A DNA stretch of 64,000 nt from an uncultured Candidatus Saccharibacteria bacterium (GCA_964405015.1 CAYOME010000001.1:10943-74942); one strand, 5' to 3'; positions 10,701 to 51,753 are shown, counted from the first letter of the stretch. A program made the numbers and translations. Notes: a model not told the origin generated them from the letters alone.

Positions 10701-11122
10701 AGATTACTACAAAGAAAGGTGATATGATGGCATTTCTAACAGTAGAAGATAAATCTGCAATAGCGGATGTAATTGTTTTTCCTCAAGGATATCAAGAAAT
10801 AAAAGATGTATTGCAAGAAGGTAAACCAATATTAATAGCGGGTAGTATAAATGTAAAAAACGGAGAGAAGAGTATCATAATGGAAAAAGCAAAGTATATT
10901 GATGAATCTAAACATGGAGATAACTTTGATGGTGTAACATTTAGGATAAGGCCTACCCATACCGAGGAACAAATAAGAGATTTAAAAAAATATATCTCTG
11001 AATCTCAAGGGGATATTCCTGTAAAGATAATTGTAAATGAAGATGGGAAAAATAGATCAGTTATCTTAGAAAAAACAATTGCATTAAATAGTGAAACAAA
11101 GAAGTGGTTGAGGAAATTCTAA
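7730..11122 (+). CDS. dnaE: DNA polymerase III alpha subunit
   Basis: MFTHLHLHTEYSLLDATTRI PHP domain, then the polymerase core (GCGSVVAYATEIT, HACGIIV, NKAHSASYA) and a C-terminal OB fold; 1130 aa. Confidence 0.95.
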   Translation: MFTHLHLHTEYSLLDATTRIYSLVEKLNASGMKSCALTDHGNMYGVMKFKSAMKDAGLKPIIGCEIYISPREMQQKDFGIDNKYNHLVLLAKNQVGYKNLMKIVSVAHMEGFYYKPRVDFETLSKHSEGLVALSGCLAGPISKPLLNGNYDDALKAAKKYSDLYKANFYIEIQRNGMEEQKVVNDGLLKISKELDLPIVATCDSHYLNKEDAYIQEILWCIGDGKTWDDPTRRKMPTNEFYVKTPEEMEELFKDIPQAIENTQKISDQIEEFEITFGRIEPHYMDLPEGETSASYLKKLTYEGAKKKYGEVTKELDERIQYELQIIDDKGYNDYFLVVRDFVLFCRQKGIVVGMRGSGCGSVVAYATEITNIEPISWELYFERFLNPERDSPPDFDIDIADKRRDEVIQYTIEKYGIENVKQIGTFSKLQTRQAIKDVGRVLGVELSVTDKLAKMVEIVFGKAKDIDYMIEHNPEFAEIINSSEKTLELAKIVRKVSGVCRGTSTHACGIIVTPHPVVEYCPLQRDSHGGGIGMTQFEMSDIEYVGLMKFDFLGLRNLNVIGEAVTKIKVNRNEELDLLGLNPKDKKAFEVIQSGHTVGVFQMESEGMKRSIRALQPETQEDICYLLAAYRPGPMQYIPEYVAVKKGDQEPDYVFPELSSVLEVTNGVITYQEQVMKIAQIVAGYTLGAADLLRRAMGKKKMEIMDKEKPKFLDGAKKNGFDEKETERLWDKLIQFANYGFNKAHSASYATVAYWTAYLKAHYPLEFMAALLEGDLDNFERVIIDLNECERLGIDVLPPTINQSRVFFTIEGDSGIRFGLGGIKNVGEDVVKTVVKERKENGLYTSLDDFIERVAKKGVQKRAIEYLIMAGTMDEFGDRAALLQVAPQIFERAKKSNSARNIGQIDIFSLSGDTGSVPEVSVTPLPDVEKTPKFQTLQWEKELLGLYFSSHPLDNLQDFFESKKVISVKDALEKKNRAVVILGVMVNKVRKITTKKGDMMAFLTVEDKSAIADVIVFPQGYQEIKDVLQEGKPILIAGSINVKNGEKSIIMEKAKYIDESKHGDNFDGVTFRIRPTHTEEQIRDLKKYISESQGDIPVKIIVNEDGKNRSVILEKTIALNSETKKWLRKF

Positions 11123-11137
11123 GGTATAATACAGGGT

Positions 11138-12613
11138 ATGAATGAGAATATTAAATCAAAGTTAGAGAGCTTACCCAGTACTCCTGGTATTTACAAATTT
11201 CTTGGTAGTAAGAGTGAGATATTGTATATAGGTAAAGCCATTAACCTTAAGTCTAGGGTTTCTTCTTACTTCCGAGAAGAACATTTTGATAGACCAAGAA
11301 TTAGGCAGATGATGCCATTAGTTTTTGATCTTGAAATTAAAGAAACTAATAATGAGATAGAGGCATTAATATTAGAATCAGCTCTTGTTAAAGAGTATAA
11401 CCCACCTTTTAATTCTGATTTAAAAGATGGTAAATCATATGCTTGGATATATATATCTACCAAAGATGAATTTCCTACTGTAAAGATTGTAAGAAGCCTT
11501 AAGAAGGGTGAATACAAAAAGGGTAAGATGTTTGGTCCATATCCTAGTGGATATACGATTAAAAGAGTATATAAATATTTAAGAAGAATATACCCATTTT
11601 GTACATGTAAGAACAAAGATTGTAAGACCAATCTTGATTTCCATATTGGTCTTTGTCCTGGCCCATATGCCAATGCAATCTCTAAAGAGGATTACATGGA
11701 AAATATTAATAGCATTATTAGGTTCTTAAATGGTAAACAGAGTAACCATATTAAAAGATTAGAAAAAGAAATGAAGATATATTCAGAGTCTGAAGATTTT
11801 GAAAAGGCTGCTCAACTTAGAGATCGTATTAATGATTTAAAATATATTGGTGAGACAATAGATTTTACATATTACGATGATACACAAAGCTATCAAAGTA
11901 GAAGAGAGAAAGCTAGATTAAAGAGTTTTGATTCAATTGCATTAGAATTAGGTTTAAAAGATATGCATAGGATTGAATGTTATGACATATCAAATATGCA
12001 AGGTAAGAATGCATATGGTTCTATGGTTGTGGCAACTGATGGTCAATTAGTTAGATCCGATTACAGAATATTTAAGATTAGGAGTAAGGATACTCCAGAT
12101 GACCCAGGAATGTTAAAAGAAGTTTTGTTAAGAAGGTTAAAAAATATTGGATTAGGTATAGATGAGAGTTTAACTGTTAAGCCTGATTTAATATTAATAG
12201 ATGGTGGTATATCACAACTCTCTGTGGTGAAAGAATATGTTCCTTCTAATATTTCCCTTATGGGTATCTCAAAAGGTAAGCATATTAAAAGGTCTGGAGG
12301 GTTGAAAATGGATGAGTTTTGGTTTGTAAAGGGTGATGAGATATTAAGGAAGGATATAGATACTCCAGAGATATTAATAGATTTAAGGAATGAAGCTCAT
12401 AGATTTGCAATATCTCATTACAGAAGACAATCAATTAAGGTTACTAAAAGATCTATCCTTGATGATATTAAGGGTATTGGACCAAAGAAAAAGAAATTAC
12501 TAAAAGAAAAATATGGAAGCATCGATATGATTAAAGAGGCCTCTTTAGATGAACTATCTCTTCTTTTAAAAAACACTTCACTGGCTAAAACTCTTAAAGA
12601 AAAGATCTCCTAA
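11138..12613 (+). CDS. uvrC: excinuclease ABC subunit C (short form, 491 aa)
   Basis: GIY-YIG domain (PGIYKFLGSKSEILYIGKAINLKSRVSSYF), UVR domain (FEKAAQLRDRINDLKYI) and a C-terminal HhH (DDIKGIGPKKKKLLKEKYGSIDMIKEASLDEL). Confidence 0.9.
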   Translation: MNENIKSKLESLPSTPGIYKFLGSKSEILYIGKAINLKSRVSSYFREEHFDRPRIRQMMPLVFDLEIKETNNEIEALILESALVKEYNPPFNSDLKDGKSYAWIYISTKDEFPTVKIVRSLKKGEYKKGKMFGPYPSGYTIKRVYKYLRRIYPFCTCKNKDCKTNLDFHIGLCPGPYANAISKEDYMENINSIIRFLNGKQSNHIKRLEKEMKIYSESEDFEKAAQLRDRINDLKYIGETIDFTYYDDTQSYQSRREKARLKSFDSIALELGLKDMHRIECYDISNMQGKNAYGSMVVATDGQLVRSDYRIFKIRSKDTPDDPGMLKEVLLRRLKNIGLGIDESLTVKPDLILIDGGISQLSVVKEYVPSNISLMGISKGKHIKRSGGLKMDEFWFVKGDEILRKDIDTPEILIDLRNEAHRFAISHYRRQSIKVTKRSILDDIKGIGPKKKKLLKEKYGSIDMIKEASLDELSLLLKNTSLAKTLKEKIS

Positions 12614-13756: not shown

Positions 13757-13848
13757 AAAAAGATTTCTTACGCAATCTTTTAATGTAAAAAAGATTCCTG
13801 ATGTAATCTTTTAATGATAAAAAAGATTTCTTACGCAATCTTTTAATG
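13757..13848. repeat. three tandem ~29-bp units (period ~31-32 bp), each an internal palindrome AAAAGATT-N8-AATCTTTT
   Basis: Units at 13757-13785 and 13820-13848 are identical (aaaaagatttcttacgcaatcttttaatg). The middle unit 13788-13816 has 5 substitutions. They are followed by a TATAAT at 13851-13856 and the tRNA-Gln 5' end at 13866. Confidence 0.7.
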
Positions 13849-13865
13849 ATATAATATTTTGCTTT

Positions 13866-13939
13866 TGCGGGATCGTCTAATGGTAGGACACCGGCCTTTG
13901 AAGCCGTGAATCATAGTTCGAATCTATGTCCCGCAACCA
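13866..13939 (+). tRNA. tRNA-Gln (anticodon TTG), CCA encoded
   Basis: Acceptor TGCGGGA/TCCCGCA (U1-A72), anticodon loop CTTTGAA giving UUG, and T-arm CATAG-TTCGAAT-CTATG; 74 nt. Confidence 0.85.
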
Positions 13940-15962: not shown

Positions 15963-16519
15963 AGAATGCATTAATTCTACACGGAACTGATGGATATCCA
16001 ACAGAGAATTGGTTTGATTGGTTGAGAATTGAACTCGAAAAACAAAAGTATAAAGTTTGGGTTCCTCAACTTCCAGACTGTAATAAACCTAATATTGAAA
16101 AATACAACCAATTTATCTTATCAAACAAAGATTGGAACTTTGATAATGAAAGCACAATTGTTGGACATTCATCTGGTGCAGTTGCAATATTGGGTCTGTT
16201 AGAAGCATTACCAGATAACGTTGTCGTAGATACATGTTATCTAGTAGGATCATTTAAAAATAATCTTGATTGGGATGCATTAGATGATCTTTTTCTTAAA
16301 CCATTTGATTTTGAAAAGATAAAAAGAAAGGCAAATAAATTCGTTTTTATACACTCTGATAATGATCCCTACTGTCCATTAGATCATGCACAGTATTTAA
16401 GAGAAAAGCTTAATGGAACTTTGATATTACTGAGAGGTCAAAAACACTTTAGTATTGGAACCGCAGGTGAACAATATAAGGAATTTCCATTCTTACTTGA
16501 TTTAATTGTTAATAATTAA
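15959..16519 (+). CDS. RBBP9/YdeN-like serine hydrolase (alpha/beta fold)
   Basis: ALILHGTDGYPTENWFDWL...IVGHSSGAVAIL shows the GHSSG nucleophile elbow in the Ser_hydrolase arrangement. Start overlaps the upstream stop by 4 nt. Confidence 0.65.
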   Translation: MKNALILHGTDGYPTENWFDWLRIELEKQKYKVWVPQLPDCNKPNIEKYNQFILSNKDWNFDNESTIVGHSSGAVAILGLLEALPDNVVVDTCYLVGSFKNNLDWDALDDLFLKPFDFEKIKRKANKFVFIHSDNDPYCPLDHAQYLREKLNGTLILLRGQKHFSIGTAGEQYKEFPFLLDLIVNN

Positions 16520-33400: not shown

Positions 33401-36400
33401 TAGAAATCAACAGGTGTGTGTGATGTACCATACCCTTCAAAAAAGGTTTCTGCTCTAGCATTAACAATCATGTATATTTCATTATCTGAAACTACCTCGA
33501 TTTGGTTAAGTATTTCAGTGTCATAATATGATTCAACAATTCTTGTCCATTGGTAGCCGAGAGTATTAGAAAACTTTGTTAAATATATATGCCTGTCTTC
33601 GTTTGCAGCAGTTTTGGTATCTACTCCAGCTGTAGAATCAAAATCTATAGTAGGACCTCCCCAGTATCCACCTACATATACATTACCTGTTGAATCTGTT
33701 TCAATATCTATTACTTCTTCATCAAGATTTTCTCCTAATATACTGATTGCATTAACAAATGTACGATCCGAGATATTAAACTTACTTATAAAGACATCAC
33801 CGTGAGCAAGATTAGGTAATATACTTACACCGGATGTACCATCCGCATCAAAATCACTAGCATACATACTTCCACCTACAAAGATATGTTGAGCTGTTAC
33901 TTCTATGTCTGTTACCTTGTCTGATCTGGAAACATCCGAACTACCAAATACAAAGGATTCTATGTATGTATCTGAAGAATCATATATTGAAACGAAGGCA
34001 TCTCCTCGACCAATGGCAGTTTTTGAGTCTATACCAGCATTAAGATTTAAATCGGTCGTTCCTTCAAAGTAGCCACCTATGTATAAATTGTCATTGGAAT
34101 CTATTGTACAGGTGGAGAGTAATTCATTAGGACCCGCAAATACTTTTGCCCATACGAATGCCCCTTGATTATCTCTTTTAATTAGATATGAATCTGCATA
34201 CCCTGTTGAAACAGAATATATTGCTGTTCCATCTGGATATCCTAGGTTAACATCAGTTCCTTCGAATTGACCCAAAGTATACGAAGAACCATCACTTGTA
34301 GTACATATATCTAAAGCAGATACACGGATATCTGCTTCAAAACCAGTATTTCCCCAATCTAGTTTAAGTCCAGTTAAATATGGGTTTGTATCTCGGTAAA
34401 TAGATACTGTATATGTATCTACTGTTCTTCTATCTTCAGCAATAACGGTGATTGTTACGGTATTGTCTCCAGGGTCAAGTGATATGGATTGGCTACTAGT
34501 ACCTGATACTACATTGGAACCATTTACTTGTAAGGAGTATGCATCAGGATCAAAAAGAGTAGGTGTTAACGTTATATTCGTAATATCAGAAGTAACCTCT
34601 ACAGTATATGTTCTTGTGTTAGTGCTAAATACTGGATTTAGTGTTCCAGAAGAGATAGTTAAGCTAGAGAGTCTTGTGTCTGTAGAATATGGTGGTGTAG
34701 AACCATCATCTCTCCAAACAGTAAGTGTATATGTTTTTGTTGTAATACCATCTCCAGCAGTTACAATGATTTCAAATATGTTGTTACCTAAGTTAAGTGG
34801 CAATGCCAAACCGAATTCTCCATTAGTTACTGAAGTTCCATTGACCGTAATTCCTGAGATATTAAAATCTTGTGCTGTTGGTCTTAAAGCAAGGGAAGTG
34901 ATGCCTGCATCTAGAACTATTGTATATGCTGTAGTGTTTGGATCGAAATCTGGTATAAATATTCCTTGTGTTGATTCTAAATTTGAAAGATTTGCATTAT
35001 CTTGAGTAACTTGACCAAAATTAGCAATGAAGCCATCATATAATCCAATTGCTGTTATTGCATTTTCACTTATACTTGGATCAAGATCAGTAGTCCCATA
35101 CATTACTCCTCCAACAAACATCTCATCTATTGAAGGGAATACAACTGAACTTACCTCAACCCAATCATCAGAATCAAAAGTTTTCGTCCAGATATATGAA
35201 TCAGAGCTATTTATTTGCATAACGTAGCCAGAACCTCCACCAGCAATTACATTTTTATTATCTACCCCAGCTGAAGGATCAAAGTCAACAGTGTCATCGA
35301 AATATCCAAATACAAAGATATTGTCTTCAAGATTAATAGTTAACCCCTTTAATGAATCCCAGCTTGATCCTCCATATGTTTTTACCCATGTTGTATCCCC
35401 AGTTGCATCTAATTTGATTAGAAATACATCGTCAGTTGAACTTATACTTGAATATTCAATAGTTTGATTGTTAGGATCTAAGAGGGCAACATCTCCATCG
35501 GTACTAAATGTACCACCAAGTACAACATTGCCCAACGAATCGGAATCTAAACCTCCATCTACAACATCTATGTAATCTTGACTAGTTATGGTCTTTGTCC
35601 ATTGATAGTTTCCATTTATATCCAATTTTGAAATATATATGCTTCCACCGTTGTATTCAGAAAAAATGTCTGTACTTGCACTTGGATCAAAATCGATATT
35701 AATACCCCTAAATCTACCTAAAGAATATACGTTTCCATTTACATCTACATTGATATGGGAATATTGAACATAGTTCCCTGATGAACTACTTGCTGTAGTT
35801 TCATATGTCTTTGACCAAGTAAACCCTCCAGTTTCAGTAAATTTTGTAACAAAGGCATGAGTTCTGTTGAAACCGTAGGTGACAATATATTCACCTTCTG
35901 TAGGATCTAAATCCAATGAAGACATAAAGGTACCACCTACATAGATGTTTCCAGTTGAATCCATATCTACACTGTATGAATAGTCTTCAAAAAATGTACT
36001 TCCCCAAGTTAGTATGTTTCCAACAGTTCCATTTGAATTAATCATTATCATATGGGCATCCCTTGGTCCTCCTGATGCTCTTGAATCAGTATTTGTTGTA
36101 GGATCTAAATCTACGGTACCTCCAAATGAACCAACAGCAACAATATTGTCATTGCTATCTACCATTAAGTCATTTATTAATACAAACGGTACGCTTGTAC
36201 TGAAATCATATGTCCATCTTAGTACCCATAACGGGTTTTGTGAGGAATCTAATTTCATCAGGTAAGTACCACTTAACATGTCATCGCCATTTGAAGGTAC
36301 ACCAAAGTCAACTGGACCATCCCTAAATGTACCTGAAACATAGAAATTTCCAGTTGAATCCATATCCATATTCTCCACTTCTATTCTACTTCCAAGATCG

Positions 36401-38343
36401 CCTAACTGTTTTGAGGATATATATGTATATTCACTTCCTTGTGGTACTGGTTTATTTACAGTAATTGTATATGTAGAGGTTTCAGTTAGATCCTCAGAAG
36501 TAACTACTACATTAATTTCGTTTGCACCACTACTAAGAGGGATGGGTGAACTAGCAACACCGCTTACCAAAGCATATCCGTTAACTGCGAGTCTAGAATT
36601 TGTATCTGCACTAGTTGCTGTTATTGAAACAGTTTCAACAGTCCCATCAACATCTAAGGTATAGCTGTAACTAACAGCTGAAAAAGAAGGAGCTACAGGA
36701 CCTTCGCTTGTGGTTAAAGACATTAGATATGAATCTGAGGAGAAACTCTCACCTGGTACAGTTAAGTTACCAACAGGATCATTTATATCTACTGCTATAT
36801 ATGGATAGAAGATTGAAACAAAAATATCTGTATTGTATGTAGAAGCAACTGGACCTCCTAAAATATACTCATTTGCAGAAGGATCAAAATCTGTATCTTC
36901 GAGATACGCACCCATTGCATATACTCTGTTTTTTGAATCAATACCTAAGTCGTAAAGATCTGAATATGCATAGCTTGTATTCTCATTTCTACCCCATGAA
37001 TATGTTTTTAAATATGTACCATCATTATTAATTACAGTTATATATGACCAAGCTTGATTTGTCATAGCAGAATGGATATCTGTACTTCCACTAAAATCAA
37101 AATCAACATTTGTACTTGTAAATCCACCACCTATATATACATTTCCATATGTATCTGTATCTAATGCAAAGGCAAATTCACTGCCAGTACCACCAAATCT
37201 TTGAGTCCAAGCATATGGATTATCTAAATCAAATGGGTTTGCACTTACATTCCACTTAGTAACAAAGGAATCTCTGCTACCAGAACTAGAGATTGAGTCT
37301 AAATTAGTTGAAGGGTCAAAATCGACAGTATTTTCAAATCTTCCAGCAATATATATGTTCTCACTTGAATCAAACACGAACTCTTTAAGTTCAACACCTG
37401 CCAAGAGAACAGTTCCAAGGTATGTATTTGTTGGAGTAAGTTTAGTAATAAAACTAGAAGAAACCGCACCAGTTGTTATACTATCATCACCTGCACCTGG
37501 ATCAAAATCTACGGTTGTATTTGAAGATATTCCGGAACCTACGTATACATCACCGGTAGACTCCTTAATCCTTACATTATGCTCAAACAAACCTCCAAGA
37601 TTTCCATATACATTTCCCCATTGGAAATTACCATCTAAATCAAATTTGGAGATAAGGAAACCACTGTTTGCTGATGTAACAGATCCAGCTCCAGGATCAA
37701 TATCTACATTGGGACTGTAAAGATGACCAGCGACATACAAAGCATTCCTAGTTGTATCAACGGCAAGATTGTATGCATAGTCATATTCGGTTCCACCCCA
37801 TGTTTTAGTCCAACCATATGTTCCATTGGAATTAATCTTCATAATGAAAGCATCGTAAGAACTTGTTGCTGTCTTACTATCTGTACCTGCGGTGAAATCA
37901 AAATCAACAGTACCATTGAAATCGCCGGAAAGGTATATATTTCCACTAGAATCTAATGCAATTCCCCCAGCACCAACATCCCCAGAAAGTGTACCTAAGG
38001 TAATACCCCACATATATACCTTCTCTGGGGAGTATTTAGACAAGAAGAATGTACCATTAGAAATTGCACTACCACTATTCCAGTTAAGATCAATATTTGT
38101 TGGATCATAGCTGTCATCGTATATCTCTCCAACAATGTAGTAGTTATCACTACTATCAAAGGCACTTTTTATTGGGAAATATGTTGAGTTATCATCATTA
38201 AAACTCTTTGTACCAATATATCCTAAACCTGTTACTCTTGCTTGAGCGTTTGCAGGAGTGTTGAAAAAGAAAACTAATCCTAAAAAGGAAATGATTAGAG
38301 TAATTAATACTCTTGATACCTGTTTAAAGCAGTTTGATCTCAT
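30433..38343 (-). CDS. giant (2636 aa) cell-surface protein: signal peptide, SBBP beta-propeller repeats, cadherin-like and Ig-like domains, acidic Pro/Thr/Glu linker, polytopic C-terminal anchor with two CarboxypepD_reg-like beta-sandwich domains
   Basis: Dozens of ~50-aa repeats of the form SGNIYLSGDFNGTVDFDFTAGTDSKTATSSYDAFIMKINSNGTYGWTKTWGG (SBBP/PF06739-like). Three repeats like LSNLESTQGIFIPDFDPNTTAYTIVL...YTLTVWR are cadherin-like. An FEFPFYDDIYTNIQIGTNG (NIDO-like) segment is also present. Linker EEPTTPGGGTTNPPTNEDPVEIPEENPDESPNENPEVDDDE. C-terminus has 4-5 transmembrane helices flanking GVVYNSTTKEPLNRAIVRIFDIEGKIV and RITDEKGRYRFIVPGGKYKL. Confidence 0.75.
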   Translation of the reverse strand: MRSNCFKQVSRVLITLIISFLGLVFFFNTPANAQARVTGLGYIGTKSFNDDNSTYFPIKSAFDSSDNYYIVGEIYDDSYDPTNIDLNWNSGSAISNGTFFLSKYSPEKVYMWGITLGTLSGDVGAGGIALDSSGNIYLSGDFNGTVDFDFTAGTDSKTATSSYDAFIMKINSNGTYGWTKTWGGTEYDYAYNLAVDTTRNALYVAGHLYSPNVDIDPGAGSVTSANSGFLISKFDLDGNFQWGNVYGNLGGLFEHNVRIKESTGDVYVGSGISSNTTVDFDPGAGDDSITTGAVSSSFITKLTPTNTYLGTVLLAGVELKEFVFDSSENIYIAGRFENTVDFDPSTNLDSISSSGSRDSFVTKWNVSANPFDLDNPYAWTQRFGGTGSEFAFALDTDTYGNVYIGGGFTSTNVDFDFSGSTDIHSAMTNQAWSYITVINNDGTYLKTYSWGRNENTSYAYSDLYDLGIDSKNRVYAMGAYLEDTDFDPSANEYILGGPVASTYNTDIFVSIFYPYIAVDINDPVGNLTVPGESFSSDSYLMSLTTSEGPVAPSFSAVSYSYTLDVDGTVETVSITATSADTNSRLAVNGYALVSGVASSPIPLSSGANEINVVVTSEDLTETSTYTITVNKPVPQGSEYTYISSKQLGDLGSRIEVENMDMDSTGNFYVSGTFRDGPVDFGVPSNGDDMLSGTYLMKLDSSQNPLWVLRWTYDFSTSVPFVLINDLMVDSNDNIVAVGSFGGTVDLDPTTNTDSRASGGPRDAHMIMINSNGTVGNILTWGSTFFEDYSYSVDMDSTGNIYVGGTFMSSLDLDPTEGEYIVTYGFNRTHAFVTKFTETGGFTWSKTYETTASSSSGNYVQYSHINVDVNGNVYSLGRFRGINIDFDPSASTDIFSEYNGGSIYISKLDINGNYQWTKTITSQDYIDVVDGGLDSDSLGNVVLGGTFSTDGDVALLDPNNQTIEYSSISSTDDVFLIKLDATGDTTWVKTYGGSSWDSLKGLTINLEDNIFVFGYFDDTVDFDPSAGVDNKNVIAGGGSGYVMQINSSDSYIWTKTFDSDDWVEVSSVVFPSIDEMFVGGVMYGTTDLDPSISENAITAIGLYDGFIANFGQVTQDNANLSNLESTQGIFIPDFDPNTTAYTIVLDAGITSLALRPTAQDFNISGITVNGTSVTNGEFGLALPLNLGNNIFEIIVTAGDGITTKTYTLTVWRDDGSTPPYSTDTRLSSLTISSGTLNPVFSTNTRTYTVEVTSDITNITLTPTLFDPDAYSLQVNGSNVVSGTSSQSISLDPGDNTVTITVIAEDRRTVDTYTVSIYRDTNPYLTGLKLDWGNTGFEADIRVSALDICTTSDGSSYTLGQFEGTDVNLGYPDGTAIYSVSTGYADSYLIKRDNQGAFVWAKVFAGPNELLSTCTIDSNDNLYIGGYFEGTTDLNLNAGIDSKTAIGRGDAFVSIYDSSDTYIESFVFGSSDVSRSDKVTDIEVTAQHIFVGGSMYASDFDADGTSGVSILPNLAHGDVFISKFNISDRTFVNAISILGENLDEEVIDIETDSTGNVYVGGYWGGPTIDFDSTAGVDTKTAANEDRHIYLTKFSNTLGYQWTRIVESYYDTEILNQIEVVSDNEIYMIVNARAETFFEGYGTSHTPVDFYSDGILLKYSSTGTLDAPKILSSNNSAEYNGITVFNNKIYISGSFRNILDVDFTEGSRTLTSTASMGNAFVQIFDTSLNYLNAVKIGLSNGGKLANSIDGIYMFGKSWYPRENISPTYIPYYLSTQYTQYNHLYLIKYLETPINRVFNTNTSYAVIDSIFSSPVNTLYFTPEEDVVTSIIQQGTIGSTNILEQENPGSTIYQQIGTKVFAGDDDTISLDLPFEFPFYDDIYTNIQIGTNGMICFDLTKSCDGYLDSGYDDTFFGPFISPLTLDTETDVTPQQGIYIDSTTERFIVSWRAQEYGYSGTEIEYSLILYPNGEFEFVYGPQTQNFSSSSVYIGVGAGDGIRYTQASNDGLLNYNQYPTLKWSPAAKPTKLANFNLDMSINRDISSISGDMDKQTGKSVIQNTQNIAGLTDIDMYIPYRNDLNISRVLVCPEATNLSEISYSCNNAQLIKVGLSGITNTTYLGDPYLKITNALPKGVMAVSANTFTVSASDTQLTEGESTSITITVIDSEGNPDPDYEGTIDIISNITGLSTTYTFLATDNGSKVFSDIAINGAGSYVVTAQDTLDEEILGVSTSIVVTAPIEEPGDESPTEEPTTPGGGTTNPPTNEDPVEIPEENPDESPNENPEVDDDESPTDEDDKGSDEQDDETTNTGVFGYIVDVFNSIVEDIRDILESPEKTERVAYTATGILIAISVTSATIGTTYPLAYVLQIGTLFFAGLKIKNKERGYGVVYNSTTKEPLNRAIVRIFDIEGKIVTTAVTNTFGAFDVNLPEGVYSISVQVRDHVFPSRVIKGGTDMPYENIYNGQQFNHNPNTPITFSIPVDPIDKSFVEYASVVFRNRIHNLFNALQNILLIGGFIFVLITYINLHRPIDLIILILYSLLILLNLYIYIKGRRKYGVVKDIYNDIVQGVNVGLRETEFDTIYARRITDEKGRYRFIVPGGKYKLEMLDENLTINTEKELTYDTDSDKILNINPDLELRRK

Positions 38344-48962: not shown

Positions 48963-49070
48963 AGCTGACTGCCATTACAGCAATCACACACAATACAAAA
49001 AAAATTCCGATTCCGATTATAACCAGACAACCAGAAATTTTCATCTCTTTTTCTCCTTTTATTGATTTTT

Positions 49071-49120
49071 ATACCAACATACAAACATCCATATAGATAT
49101 AAATATCTATATGTTGGTAT
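49071..49120. repeat. long AT-rich imperfect palindrome
   Basis: ATACCAACAT-acaaacatcc-ATATAGATAT-aa-ATATCTATAT(overlap)GTTGGTAT. The outer and inner 10-mers are exact reverse complements; the left arm carries a 10-nt insertion. Confidence 0.5.
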
Positions 49121-49242
49121 AAATGAACCCACATTGTCCTTATTAATGAGCAGTTATTCAATTCAGTATTAAAACTAGAAAAGAATAATTAGGTATTAAA
49201 ACCTAATATATTATACCATATTACTATAGGGCTATAAATATG

Positions 49243-50013
49243 CTATACCTTTGTCTTCCAATCTAAGGTATCAGTAAGAATATCAGGAGAATCCTTTCTA
49301 ACAACAACCATATACTCAAACATAACAGAATTACCACCATTTTTTGTCTTAGCAGACCACCCATCCTTATCTATCTTCACTTCCCCAGTATCATCAACAA
49401 CCTGACACTCAATACAAAGAACCATACCATCAACTAAGAGAGGACCCTTTCCTTTATTTCCATATGCTGGAACATCTGGAGAATCATGCAATGTCTTACC
49501 AATACCATGACCAACAAACATACGCATAACATTAAAGCCATTTTTCTTTGCAACACTCTCCATATTATGACCCAAATCACCGACATGATTACCAACTATT
49601 GCAAGTGGAAGAGTACTCTCTACAGCCTCTCTACCAGCCCTTAGAAGCTTCTCATTGGTAGCATTTGGATTACCAATACTCCAAGTCCAACAATGATCTG
49701 TAAACAACCCCTTATGAATAATCCCAAAATCTATTGAAACAAGATCTCCTTGTTTAAAAGGTATATCTGTAGGAATACCATGAACAGCAACATCGTTAAC
49801 TGAAATACAAGTATTGTATTTATAACCATTTACACCTAAAAAAGATGGGGAAACATGATTAGCTTTGCACAGTTCACCAGCTATAACATCTATCTCAAAA
49901 GGAGTAACACCAACCTCAATACGATTACCCAATTCCTTCAAAATACCAACAGAAATCTCTGCAGCCTCCCTCAACAACATCTCATCTTTTGCTCTATTCA
50001 ATACCATGCCCAC
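49243..50013 (-). CDS. map: methionine aminopeptidase type I
   Basis: Pita-bread fold motifs (DLVSIDFG, HCWTWSIG, HGIGKTLH, MFEYMVVV). GTG start at 50013. Confidence 0.9.
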   Translation of the reverse strand: MGMVLNRAKDEMLLREAAEISVGILKELGNRIEVGVTPFEIDVIAGELCKANHVSPSFLGVNGYKYNTCISVNDVAVHGIPTDIPFKQGDLVSIDFGIIHKGLFTDHCWTWSIGNPNATNEKLLRAGREAVESTLPLAIVGNHVGDLGHNMESVAKKNGFNVMRMFVGHGIGKTLHDSPDVPAYGNKGKGPLLVDGMVLCIECQVVDDTGEVKIDKDGWSAKTKNGGNSVMFEYMVVVRKDSPDILTDTLDWKTKV

Positions 50014-50021
50014 ATTATACA

Positions 50022-50594
50022 GGTAGACCCTAGTCTAATAAAGTGGTGATATTTCAAGGGAAGTTCATAGACCTGGGGTATGATATTGATATGTCCAGAC
50101 CAAGAAATTTTCAAAGTGGATTTCCATATCATATTGTCTCAAGGGGTAATCAAAGAGAGGATATCTTCAAAGAAATTAGAGATTATAAATATTTTACAAA
50201 GTTGCTGATGAAATATTCCTCAGTACATGATATCGCAATTTTTTCTTACTGCCTTATGCCTAATCACTACCATTTGTTAGTTTGTAGTATTGATACAGCC
50301 TCGATTTCAAAATTTATGCATATTGTGAATTGTGCATATGCAGAACATATGAAGAGAAAATATGGATGGGTAGGGCATGTTTTTCAAAGTAGGTTTAGGG
50401 CCTACAAAATAGGTGATTTCGTATATTTTGAAACAATCCTAAGATACATAAAAAGGAATCCTGTCAAAGCGGGTTTAGCATTGAAAATCGGAGAATACAA
50501 ATGGCAATATACCAATTCAAAGTTAGTAAGGAAAATGTCCCAGGTCTATAAACTAATGTCTTAGCTATGCAAAAAGTATAGACTAGGGTCTACC
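50022..50594 (+). mobile_element. compact RAYT/IS200-like HUH (Y1) transposase element flanked by 16-bp perfect inverted repeats (REPtron-like)
   Basis: Left end GGTAGACCCTAGTCTA (50022-50037). Right end TAGACTAGGGTCTACC (50579-50594), its exact reverse complement. Each end can also form a TAGAC-ccta-GTCTA mini-hairpin. It contains a single ORF. Confidence 0.7.
50091..50564 (+). CDS. tnpA: REP-associated tyrosine (HUH/Y1) transposase, IS200/RAYT family
   Basis: MSRPRNFQSGFPYHIVSRGNQREDIF...YCLMPNHYHLLV (HuH motif)...YIKRNPVKAGL (catalytic Tyr-x-x-NP). The track ORF begins at a GTG at 50043; the first ATG is at 50091. Confidence 0.8.
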   Translation: MSRPRNFQSGFPYHIVSRGNQREDIFKEIRDYKYFTKLLMKYSSVHDIAIFSYCLMPNHYHLLVCSIDTASISKFMHIVNCAYAEHMKRKYGWVGHVFQSRFRAYKIGDFVYFETILRYIKRNPVKAGLALKIGEYKWQYTNSKLVRKMSQVYKLMS

Positions 50595-51753
50595 CGATGA
50601 TGTAGAGTTCTTCTTCGGCTCTGGTTATGGCAGTATATAGCCATCTGCGGAAGTTGTCGTCGTCCATTTTGGGGAATCTTTCTTCGAATACAACAACTCT
50701 TTTAGCTTGGCTGCCTTGAGCTTTGTGAACGGTTAATGCATATCCAAAGTCAAAATAGTTAAGTTCTGGCATCTTTTTATCTATTAACTCTATAGAATTG
50801 AATTGCTCAATAGAGATTTTCCCCCAGAATGGCAAATCTTCATAATCTAAAGCAATTTCGGCTTCGTAATATTCAAGAGAATCCGCTCCCTTACGAGAGA
50901 TATCCAAAATCGTGCCAGTCATACCATTGAAAATATCTACAATTCTATTATTTTTTAAACATATAACTCGATCACCAATTTGAGGATTACTAGTCTCAAA
51001 ATGTAAACTTCTGATTGCTTTGTTAAGATTAACTCTAGTTTTGTTATAGCCACATAACACCATTGTTTCATCATTGAAAGATGCAAAAATATCTCTTAAT
51101 GTATCCTGTGTGTCTGGTTCAACCTTGTTTATCTTTTTTACAGTTCTAGAGAATTCTTCAAAAGGTATATTACCGTATTTTCTTGCAATCTCAGAAACTT
51201 TAATGATTGGATTCTGAGCCTCCTGTCTATATATCTCTTCTAAAGTAAGATCAGGTTTCCCCATCAAATTAAAATTACTGTTAATTGGAGGTAATTGGCC
51301 ATGGTCACCGACTGCAAGAATAGGGACATTAAAACTTAGCAAATCATTCCAAATATCTTCTGTTACCATAGAGGCTTCATCGACAACTATTAGATCATAT
51401 TTAAAATCCTCCAAAGGAATTTTTTCCCACCCAAGTATATTATCGTCATCATCAACAATCGCTCTATATATTAATCTATGAATAGTACCATTAAAGTCAG
51501 TATTTCGAATTGATTTACTCTCCACTAATTTCCTATTCAAAACTCTTGCGGCTTTCCCAGTAAAACTACAATATGCAATCTTTATTTTTTTATTATCATT
51601 ATGCAGATATTCACTTAAATATCCAAGTAAAGTAGTTTTACCTGTTCCAGCATATCCACCTAGTGTGATATACTGACATTTAGACGATCTAAACCAATCT
51701 AATATATTATCAGTGACTTTTAATTGTGTTTTCGAGAGTTCAAAATTTTTCAT
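50590..51753 (-). CDS. RecD/PIF1-like ATP-dependent DNA helicase (short, 387 aa)
   Basis: ITLGGYAGTGKTTLLGYL (Walker A), VVDEASMV (Walker B), VGDHGQLPPI and C-terminal LTVHKAQGSQAKRVVVF...YTAITRAEEELYIIG. The stop codon lies inside the right inverted repeat of the RAYT element. Confidence 0.7.
   Translation of the reverse strand: MKNFELSKTQLKVTDNILDWFRSSKCQYITLGGYAGTGKTTLLGYLSEYLHNDNKKIKIAYCSFTGKAARVLNRKLVESKSIRNTDFNGTIHRLIYRAIVDDDDNILGWEKIPLEDFKYDLIVVDEASMVTEDIWNDLLSFNVPILAVGDHGQLPPINSNFNLMGKPDLTLEEIYRQEAQNPIIKVSEIARKYGNIPFEEFSRTVKKINKVEPDTQDTLRDIFASFNDETMVLCGYNKTRVNLNKAIRSLHFETSNPQIGDRVICLKNNRIVDIFNGMTGTILDISRKGADSLEYYEAEIALDYEDLPFWGKISIEQFNSIELIDKKMPELNYFDFGYALTVHKAQGSQAKRVVVFEERFPKMDDDNFRRWLYTAITRAEEELYIIG

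Follow-up and report, generated by a model that had tools for sequence, protein, structure and literature searches.

A probably resident, single-copy RAYT/TIRYT-type cassette with nested inverted repeats between map and a helicase gene in a Dojkabacteria genome

REP-associated tyrosine transposases (RAYTs; REP, repetitive extragenic palindrome) are a textbook case of domesticated bacterial transposases, and their function in the host is unsettled. A locus in a 64-kb stretch of DNA deposited for an uncultured Candidatus Saccharibacteria bacterium (GCA_964405015.1, CAYOME010000001.1:10943-74942; hereafter the window, whose positions serve as coordinates) raises the question of what a transposase gene enclosed by short inverted repeats represents: a mobile insertion, a resident unit, or a gene that happens to lie between regulatory hairpins of its neighbors. 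Our results indicate that it is probably a resident, single-copy cassette of the RAYT/TIRYT type (TIRYT, a tyrosine transposase associated with terminal inverted repeats), REPtron- or TIRtron-like, in which two nested pairs of inverted repeats surround one intact Y1 HUH gene in a Dojkabacteria genome. The original prediction of a RAYT-type, single-copy REPtron-like unit was supported by a RAYT profile score of 67 bits versus 27 bits for IS200, by 4ER8 as the best fold, and by the inverted GTAG hairpins at the two ends.

The cassette is delimited by the outer repeat GGTAGACCCTAGTCTA at positions 50022-50037 (plus strand) and its exact reverse complement at 50579-50594 (minus strand), with 16 of 16 positions matching. 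These perfect terminal inverted repeats had been predicted, and they form the sole pair in the window: even with up to three mismatches permitted, GGTAGACCCTAGTCTA matched only the two cassette ends. When the upstream flank was shuffled (n = 100), the best flank-to-flank inverted repeat had a mean of 7.3 matched bases, and 16 was never reached. Both ends carry GGTAGAC-CCTA-GTCTA in inverted orientation, that is, with the 5' GT[AG]G tag of the RAYT type. At the left end the GTAG tag (50023-26) overlaps the hairpin TAGAC-CCTA-GTCTA, which has a 5-bp stem and a 4-nt loop; the left end carries the tag on its top strand and the right end on its bottom strand. The end hairpin described earlier is therefore present at both ends, but it is weak alone (-2.5 kcal/mol as DNA, z = -1.5), and 20 of 200 shuffled sequences folded equally well. 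Folding of the whole ends as DNA, outer and inner repeats together, gave no significant structure either (z of +0.3 to -1.5).

The gene between the repeats (50091-50564, plus strand) encodes 157 aa followed by a stop codon, and it is antisense to both neighbors, the helicase gene and map. A GTG at 50043 had been proposed as its start; the ATG at 50091 is most likely instead, since all orthologs and the public gene call begin there. A TAAAAT/TATGAT sequence, similar to the TATAAT boxes described below, precedes this ATG by 6-7 nt. The assignment of the single open reading frame (ORF) to the Y1 HUH enzymes passed the profile check. Y1_Tnp (PF01797), the sole Pfam domain in the protein, matched with 59 bits (E = 6e-16; curated cut-off, 23 bits) across profile positions 5-120 of 121. 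The HUH motif H59-Y60-H61 is encoded at 50265-50273, and the catalytic Tyr119 (50445-50447) lies in YIKRNP. The residues H59, H61, Y119, and N123 were invariant in a 69-member family alignment, and HUH and the single catalytic tyrosine (Y-x3-N-P) were also invariant in alignments of 6 and 4 sequences. In NCBIfam, the protein scored 67.1 bits with REP_Tyr_transpos versus 26.9 bits with transpos_IS200, the latter being below its cut-off of 55.

The confident AlphaFold model of the protein (predicted local distance difference test, pLDDT, of 95.3) had as its best match in the PDB the E. coli RAYT in complex with a REP hairpin (4ER8_A), with a template modeling (TM) score of 0.68 over the full length (158 columns). 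The transposases of IS608, ISDra2, and IS200 reached 0.45-0.56 over 115-147 columns, and the top 30 fold matches were all Y1 transposases. Identity to 4ER8 was only about 16%, and a sequence-only PDB search with the family profile did not find this structure, which was reached by the fold search alone; the RAYT of the window therefore represents a divergent branch. In an exhaustive search of 1.84 billion representative proteins, 26,373 relatives were found at E <= 0.001 and only 3 at E <= 1e-30, so the superfamily is huge and this clade is tiny. Among the orthologs L011, L002, and L012, the ratio of nonsynonymous to synonymous substitution rates (dN/dS) was 0.07-0.09, which indicates that the gene is under purifying selection.

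The neighborhoods of the helicase orthologs and of every close RAYT relative were compared. The close helicase homologs are named Candidatus Dojkabacteria, and this identifies the host as a Dojkabacteria genome of the candidate phyla radiation (CPR). At least six other lineages have an antisense RAYT that separates the stop of the helicase gene from the start of map, with 47-61% aa identity to the protein of the window (L002, 57%; L009, 47%; L011, 56%; L012, 53%; L106, 60%; L107, 56%). The predicted position of the cassette between map and the helicase stop is thus confirmed and is shared with these lineages, and all RAYTs at least 47% identical sit there. The view of the element as a fresh insertion does not agree with such diverged orthologs in exactly the same slot. 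The closest RAYT protein in any other genome was 61% identical, and no identical or near-identical cassette was found. RAYTs that are 44% identical occupy other places, between dnaE and uvrC in L108-L110 and between a peptidase gene and a tRNA-Ala gene in L111. An 80-aa "truncated" gene in L010 proved to be a gene-calling difference, as the DNA is identical to that of L011, which has an intact gene.

The helicase-map slot is empty in L006, whose helicase is the closest found (88% identical to that of the window), and in L007/L008 (81%). In the empty slot the helicase TAA is followed by the 19-nt spacer TTTCTTTCTGTTTTAG(G/A)GA, TATAAT, 5 nt, and the map ATG; the empty relatives have a 30-nt spacer in place of the cassette and lack both outer hairpins. 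Comparison with uninterrupted map-helicase junctions, which had been suggested as a way to define the target site, therefore succeeded in finding empty sites, but a clean target site did not emerge: no clean insertion footprint was seen between occupied and empty alleles, and the 19-nt spacer was replaced rather than split.

The repeats have been retained together with the gene in this slot, and sequence comparison shows much stronger conservation of both repeat pairs and of the 5' untranslated region than of the coding DNA. The left non-coding end (5' region) showed 77% mean column identity over the seven lineages, and the 22 nt GGTAGACCCTAGTCTAATAAAG, comprising the left repeat and ATAAAG, were identical at 22 of 22 positions between the window and L107, whose RAYTs share 56% protein and 62% DNA identity. 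The GTAG...CTAC termini were kept in all seven lineages, the sole exception being GTAA at one end of L009. The 5-6-bp stem was paired in 83% of cells over 14 ends, with one pair changed on both sides (A-T to C-G or G-C). Shuffle controls lent this modest support (12 of 500 for cells paired and 8 of 500 for the covariation score).

A second, nested inverted repeat, which the original prediction had missed, lies at 50062-50077 and 50539-50554, with 15 of 16 positions complementary. Its left arm, AGTTCATAGACCTGGG (plus strand), ends 14 nt before the RAYT ATG and thus belongs to the 5' untranslated region, and its right arm, CCCAGGTCTATAAACT (minus strand), is within the final RAYT codons (..SQVYKL..). 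The inner repeat reads CCTGGGGTAT. The core of the left arm, ATAGACCTGGGGTA, was kept even at a different locus, L108, whose RAYT is 44% identical. Covariation of the inner arms was seen within lineages: in L106, ATAGACC became ATATACC (G to T) in both arms, and the change is synonymous in the coding arm. The observed agreement was reached in 78 of 5040 permutations. The evidence for covariation within lineages is modest, for the inner arms as for the hairpin stem. In L111 (2850-3560), the 44%-identical RAYT has two nested inverted-repeat pairs, of which the outer is a perfect 20-nt repeat (AGGCCTGACCTGAAGATTTC); this cassette lies between the stop codon of the peptidase gene and the tRNA-Ala gene, with a double-repeat layout as in the window.

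Enclosure by inverted repeats is common in the wider family. A metagenome scan yielded 458 relatives, 66 of them with enough flank, and 51 of the 66 (30-42% identity) were bracketed by a significant inverted repeat. Usually, one repeat stands 20-130 nt ahead of the start codon and the other either directly follows the stop codon or overlaps it. Self-palindromic repeats are frequent, and many have GGGGACAG- or GGGGTCA-type motifs.

As regards copy number and dispersal, the window contains one RAYT copy. Relaxed hairpins (GTAGAC-N4-GTCTAC, with up to two mismatches) were not found in the window beyond the two ends, nor were other dispersed repeat families. A weak second RAYT-like match at 15978-16136 lies within an alpha/beta-hydrolase-like ORF and is attributed to chance. 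The exact 16-mer was also searched in a collection holding one genome per bacterial or archaeal species, to which the source genome does not belong, and gave 14 single-copy matches, 13 of them in unrelated organisms. One of these, a 22-nt exact match to the repeat plus ATAAAG (L097, 266-287), is inside a TonB-receptor-like ORF of an unrelated member of the Bacteroidota and was judged to be chance, though its length makes chance unlikely.

The fourteenth match (L098) is in the same metagenome-assembled genome (MAG), CAYVBS01 (GCA_964449955.1), as the 44%-identical RAYT of L108. The DnaE of this MAG is 72-82% identical to that of the window, which marks it as a close Dojkabacteria relative despite its label. 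The match, GTAGACTAGGGTCTACCTG (1158-1175; hairpin GTAGAC-TAGG-GTCTAC plus CTG), is identical over 18 nt to the map-side end of the window cassette. It stands alone, 24 nt upstream of a tRNA-Arg(CCT) gene and followed by a TAAAAT box, and is either a repeat by itself or what remains of a cassette end.

Repeats of other kinds were observed in the window. A tandem array of three units, AAAAAGATTTCTTACGCAATCTTTTAATG, each of about 31 nt and palindromic in itself, occupies 13757-13848 directly upstream of a tRNA-Gln gene (13866-13939); L108 lacks it at the equivalent position. At 33660-37909 there are also several families of diverged direct repeats of 30-43 nt, hundreds of bases apart, which have the appearance of repeats within one or more large genes.

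The map gene (49243-50007, minus strand) encodes a methionine aminopeptidase of 254 aa counted from the ATG at 50007. A GTG at 50013, which would place the repeat only 8 nt away, had been taken as its start; according to the orthologs and the public gene call the ATG at 50007 is more likely, and the distance is 14 nt. It had also been argued that the repeat separates map from its promoter. On the contrary, the map ATG and the repeat have a perfect TATAAT box between them (50014-50019, minus strand), 6 nt upstream of this ATG and 2 nt from the left repeat. All occupied loci end on the map side with ...CTAC(C/G)TG, followed directly by TATAAT, 5-6 nt, and ATG, and the orthologous loci, occupied and empty alike, all have the box 5-6 nt ahead of the map ATG. 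Since TATAAT is conserved between the repeat and the map ATG, the putative -10 element evidently stays with map despite the cassette.

The spacing of TATAAT and ATG indicates that the map transcript is probably leaderless or near-leaderless. A scan for consensus -35 and -10 elements found no full promoter at the map or the RAYT start. A perfect TATAAT 5-7 nt upstream of an ATG was observed both at map and at uvrC (11125-11130, plus strand) and is kept in relatives; the two boxes suggest that leaderless or near-leaderless transcripts occur in this lineage. Downstream of map, at 49068-49123, there is an AT-rich near-palindrome with 27-nt arms, 81% complementary, and a 2-nt loop.

On the other side of the cassette lies the gene for a RecD-like superfamily-1 helicase (50590-51753, minus strand; 387 aa), the last codon and stop of which are in or adjoining the right repeat. 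As predicted, the repeat at 50579-94 contains the TAG stop (50590-50592, minus strand). The helicases of the empty sites end in ...I(V/I)A-TAA, whereas those of the window, L009, and L106 end in ...IIG-TA(G/A) with the stop within the repeat. In L107 the helicase ends in ...IIA-TAG, and this TAG forms the first bases of the repeat. The length of the helicase protein is the same with or without the cassette. This comparison of empty sites with the TAG inside the repeat shows that the cassette end supplies the helicase stop codon, in agreement with one of the two options raised earlier, that the insertion created the stop, and it probably supplies the last codon as well.

These features of the flanking genes make it necessary to ask whether the outer repeats belong to the host genes and not to the transposase, being a terminator of the helicase gene on one side and an insulator or upstream promoter element of map on the other, with the transposase gene merely between them. 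On the helicase strand of L002 and L011, TTTTTT comes directly after the helicase-side hairpin GTAGCC-TAGA-GGCTAC, and the two together make a textbook intrinsic terminator; the sequence after the window's hairpin is TACTTTTT, and the map-side repeat always abuts TATAAT. However, neither hairpin occurs in the empty-site relatives, the exact inverted pair travels with the transposase gene, and flanking inverted repeats are a habit of the whole family in unrelated contexts. Moreover, the GTAG tag is a known recognition signal of RAYTs (PMC3333891), and the hairpin of the window was not called as a terminator by a terminator scan. It is plausible that the repeat was co-opted as a helicase terminator; such co-option is compatible with a resident RAYT cassette and so does not make a true rival of what we consider an improbable explanation. 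Still more improbable, to the point of being nearly discounted, is an autonomous insertion sequence of the IS200/IS605 family. The Pfam domain in common and the small size with a single ORF would fit such an element, but the IS200 score of 27 bits is far from the cut-off of 55, the fold is nearer to RAYT than to the IS608 and ISDra2 transposases, terminal inverted repeats are found in place of subterminal hairpins on the same strand, and the element is single-copy in the window and bound to one locus across lineages.

A more serious alternative, though one that we regard as rather unlikely, is that the cassette is mobile, now or recently, as a unit and entered the slot more than once, either through site-specific insertion beside TATAAT by the transposase or through homologous recombination with DNA of cassette-bearing relatives. 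On the helicase tree, the lineages are arranged as ((L007 empty, L107 occupied), (L006 empty, window occupied)) and the outgroups are occupied, so that ancestral presence would require two losses. The spacers of the empty sites are identical at 18 of 19 positions and have no counterpart in the occupied sites; this near-identity, together with the split of presence and absence within two sister pairs, speaks against two independent deletions. The divergence of the RAYTs is also deeper than that of the host genes between the window and L107. Mosaic flanks are hinted at as well: over its last 36 nt the window helicase gene shares 92% identity with L009 versus 69% with the sister L006, and over its first 72 nt the window map gene shares 83% with L012 versus 61% with L006. 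A large recombination tract around the cassette was considered and rejected, since the DNA identity of the window and L006 is a uniform 76-77% across helicase and map and only the short junction blocks are mosaic.

A second slot of the same geometry also favors mobility. In L108-L110, which belong to the MAG CAYVBS01, the 44%-identical RAYT cassette is antisense and fills the space from the dnaE stop codon to the TATAAT of uvrC; in L108 (2923-3508) the order is TAA ATAACG, CCCCGAGCTAT, the antisense RAYT, ATAGCTCGGGG, TATAAT TGGGG ATG. The dnaE-uvrC junction of the window (11120-11143), TAA GG TATAAT ACAGGGT ATG, is an empty version of this slot, and the solo end of L098, 18 nt of which match the window, comes from the same genome as L108. 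Both slots have empty alleles in close relatives, and in both the cassette is antisense: one of its repeats abuts a -10 box, and the other lies on the upstream stop codon or right beside it. From this, a narrower proposal can be put forward, which we hold to be slightly more doubtful than mobility in general: whole RAYT cassettes of Dojkabacteria, repeats included, may move as units into the tiny "stop codon-TATAAT" spacers that separate housekeeping genes of the same direction. Against movement as a unit stand the lack of a second copy in the window and of a near-identical cassette in any other genome, the lack of a clean insertion footprint, and the confinement of the mosaic signal to blocks of 36-72 nt. 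In addition, the repeats are not generally flanked by TATAAT (TATAAT/ATTATA as an insertion target of the whole family was rejected, being found at 0-1 of 52 wider-family loci), and the REPtrons of E. coli do not move as units (PMC3333891).

Several observations weigh against the resident RAYT cassette and have to be set beside the evidence for it. The two empty/occupied sister pairs with near-identical empty spacers are a poor fit to purely vertical residence, and the RAYTs of the window and L107 are only 56% identical versus 74% for L011 and L012, both pairs being at 79-80% helicase identity. A dispersed REP population, which is part of the classical definition of RAYTs, was not seen in the window. 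The NCBIfam RAYT score of 67.1 bits is below the equivalog cut-off of 80, so that the protein is a divergent relative and not an equivalog by that model. The outer hairpin has 5 bp only and is not significantly stable alone. As for the TIRtron side of the comparison, the GGGGWSAS motif is not in the outer repeat of the window, and the inner arm has the sequence given above; nor does the 157-aa protein have the C-terminal helix-turn-helix (HTH) domain of TIRYT subclass 2.1. Even so, a locus-bound, selected, single-copy RAYT cassette is the best-supported description of the element.

By analogy with the E. coli RAYT and with IS200/IS605 elements, the enzyme would bind the GTAG tag and hairpin ends as single-stranded DNA, and, as described for the E. 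coli RAYT and IS608, it might cleave and rejoin these ends through a 5'-phosphotyrosine link at Y119. The repeats may accordingly have been kept as recognition sites of the enzyme. Because the GTAG hairpins are on opposite strands, the unit would not be expected to be excised as one single-stranded circle, unlike IS608, and this expectation fits the locus-bound, single-copy state.

The cassette offers a clean and small test case for the host function of RAYTs, as its features are minimal: the protein has 157 aa, the hairpin has 5 bp, no repeat population is visible, and the CPR host genome measures about 1 Mb, while gene and repeats are under strong purifying selection. The occupied and empty sister alleles, together with the second slot of identical geometry, provide a handle on whether such cassettes still move as units. 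If they do move into stop codon-TATAAT spacers, this would be unit mobility with a site preference for a RAYT cassette, unlike the E. coli REPtron, in a reduced genome that has no REP population to serve.

The cassette belongs to a kind that has been described, the REPtrons and TIRtrons, and comes from a CPR lineage. In REPtrons, RAYT genes are flanked by GTAG-tagged REPs, and the purified E. coli RAYT showed GTAG-dependent binding and cleavage of single-stranded repeat DNA with oligonucleotides (PMC3333891). The E. coli REPtron (tnpA_REP / RAYT, 4ER8; Ton-Hoang 2012, PMC3333891; Messing 2012, PMC3479197) is similar to the cassette of the window in having a Y1 HUH enzyme of the same fold, which was the best structural match, and a gene flanked by inverted hairpin repeats with a 5' GTAG tag. 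It is likewise single-copy at one locus, missing from some close relatives, and not obviously mobile as a unit; it was present in 74 of 110 strains and was judged not to transpose as a unit (PMC3333891). However, the repeats of E. coli are imperfect palindromes of 30-40 nt with an essential mismatch, whereas the window has a tiny, perfect 5-bp stem, and the GTAG tag is at the foot of the hairpin in E. coli but overlaps the stem in the window. The window also differs in showing no dispersed population of REPs or bacterial interspersed mosaic elements (BIMEs) in its 64 kb, and in having a second, nested inverted-repeat pair.

The IS200/IS605 elements (IS608, ISDra2) have the HUH/tyrosine catalytic core in common with the window, and similar chemistry on single-stranded hairpin DNA would be expected. 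Unlike the window, with its perfect inverted repeat, opposite-strand hairpins, and single copy, these elements have no terminal inverted repeats, carry their end hairpins on the same strand, and are multicopy.

TIRtrons consist of RAYT-like TIRYT genes flanked by inverted repeats, often GGGGWSAS, and predominate in species without a REP family (PMC3733652, PMC6006769); subclass 2.1 of the TIRYTs has a C-terminal HTH domain (PMC6006769). As in TIRtrons (Di Nocera 2013, PMC3733652; subclass 2.1, Quentin 2018, PMC6006769), the RAYT-like gene of the window is between terminal inverted repeats, with no evident REP family in the 64 kb examined. The repeats of TIRtrons may overlap the 3' end of the gene ("3'ov"), and some are double, which is also similar to the window. 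The GGGGWSAS motif occurs in many of the 30-42%-identical relatives of the window protein. The outer repeat of the window, unlike those of TIRtrons, is GTAG-tagged as in REPs. Thus, the cassette is intermediate between the REPtron and TIRtron types: the outer repeat bears a REP-like GTAG tag but is very short, dispersed copies were not seen in the 64 kb, and its protein is without a C-terminal HTH.

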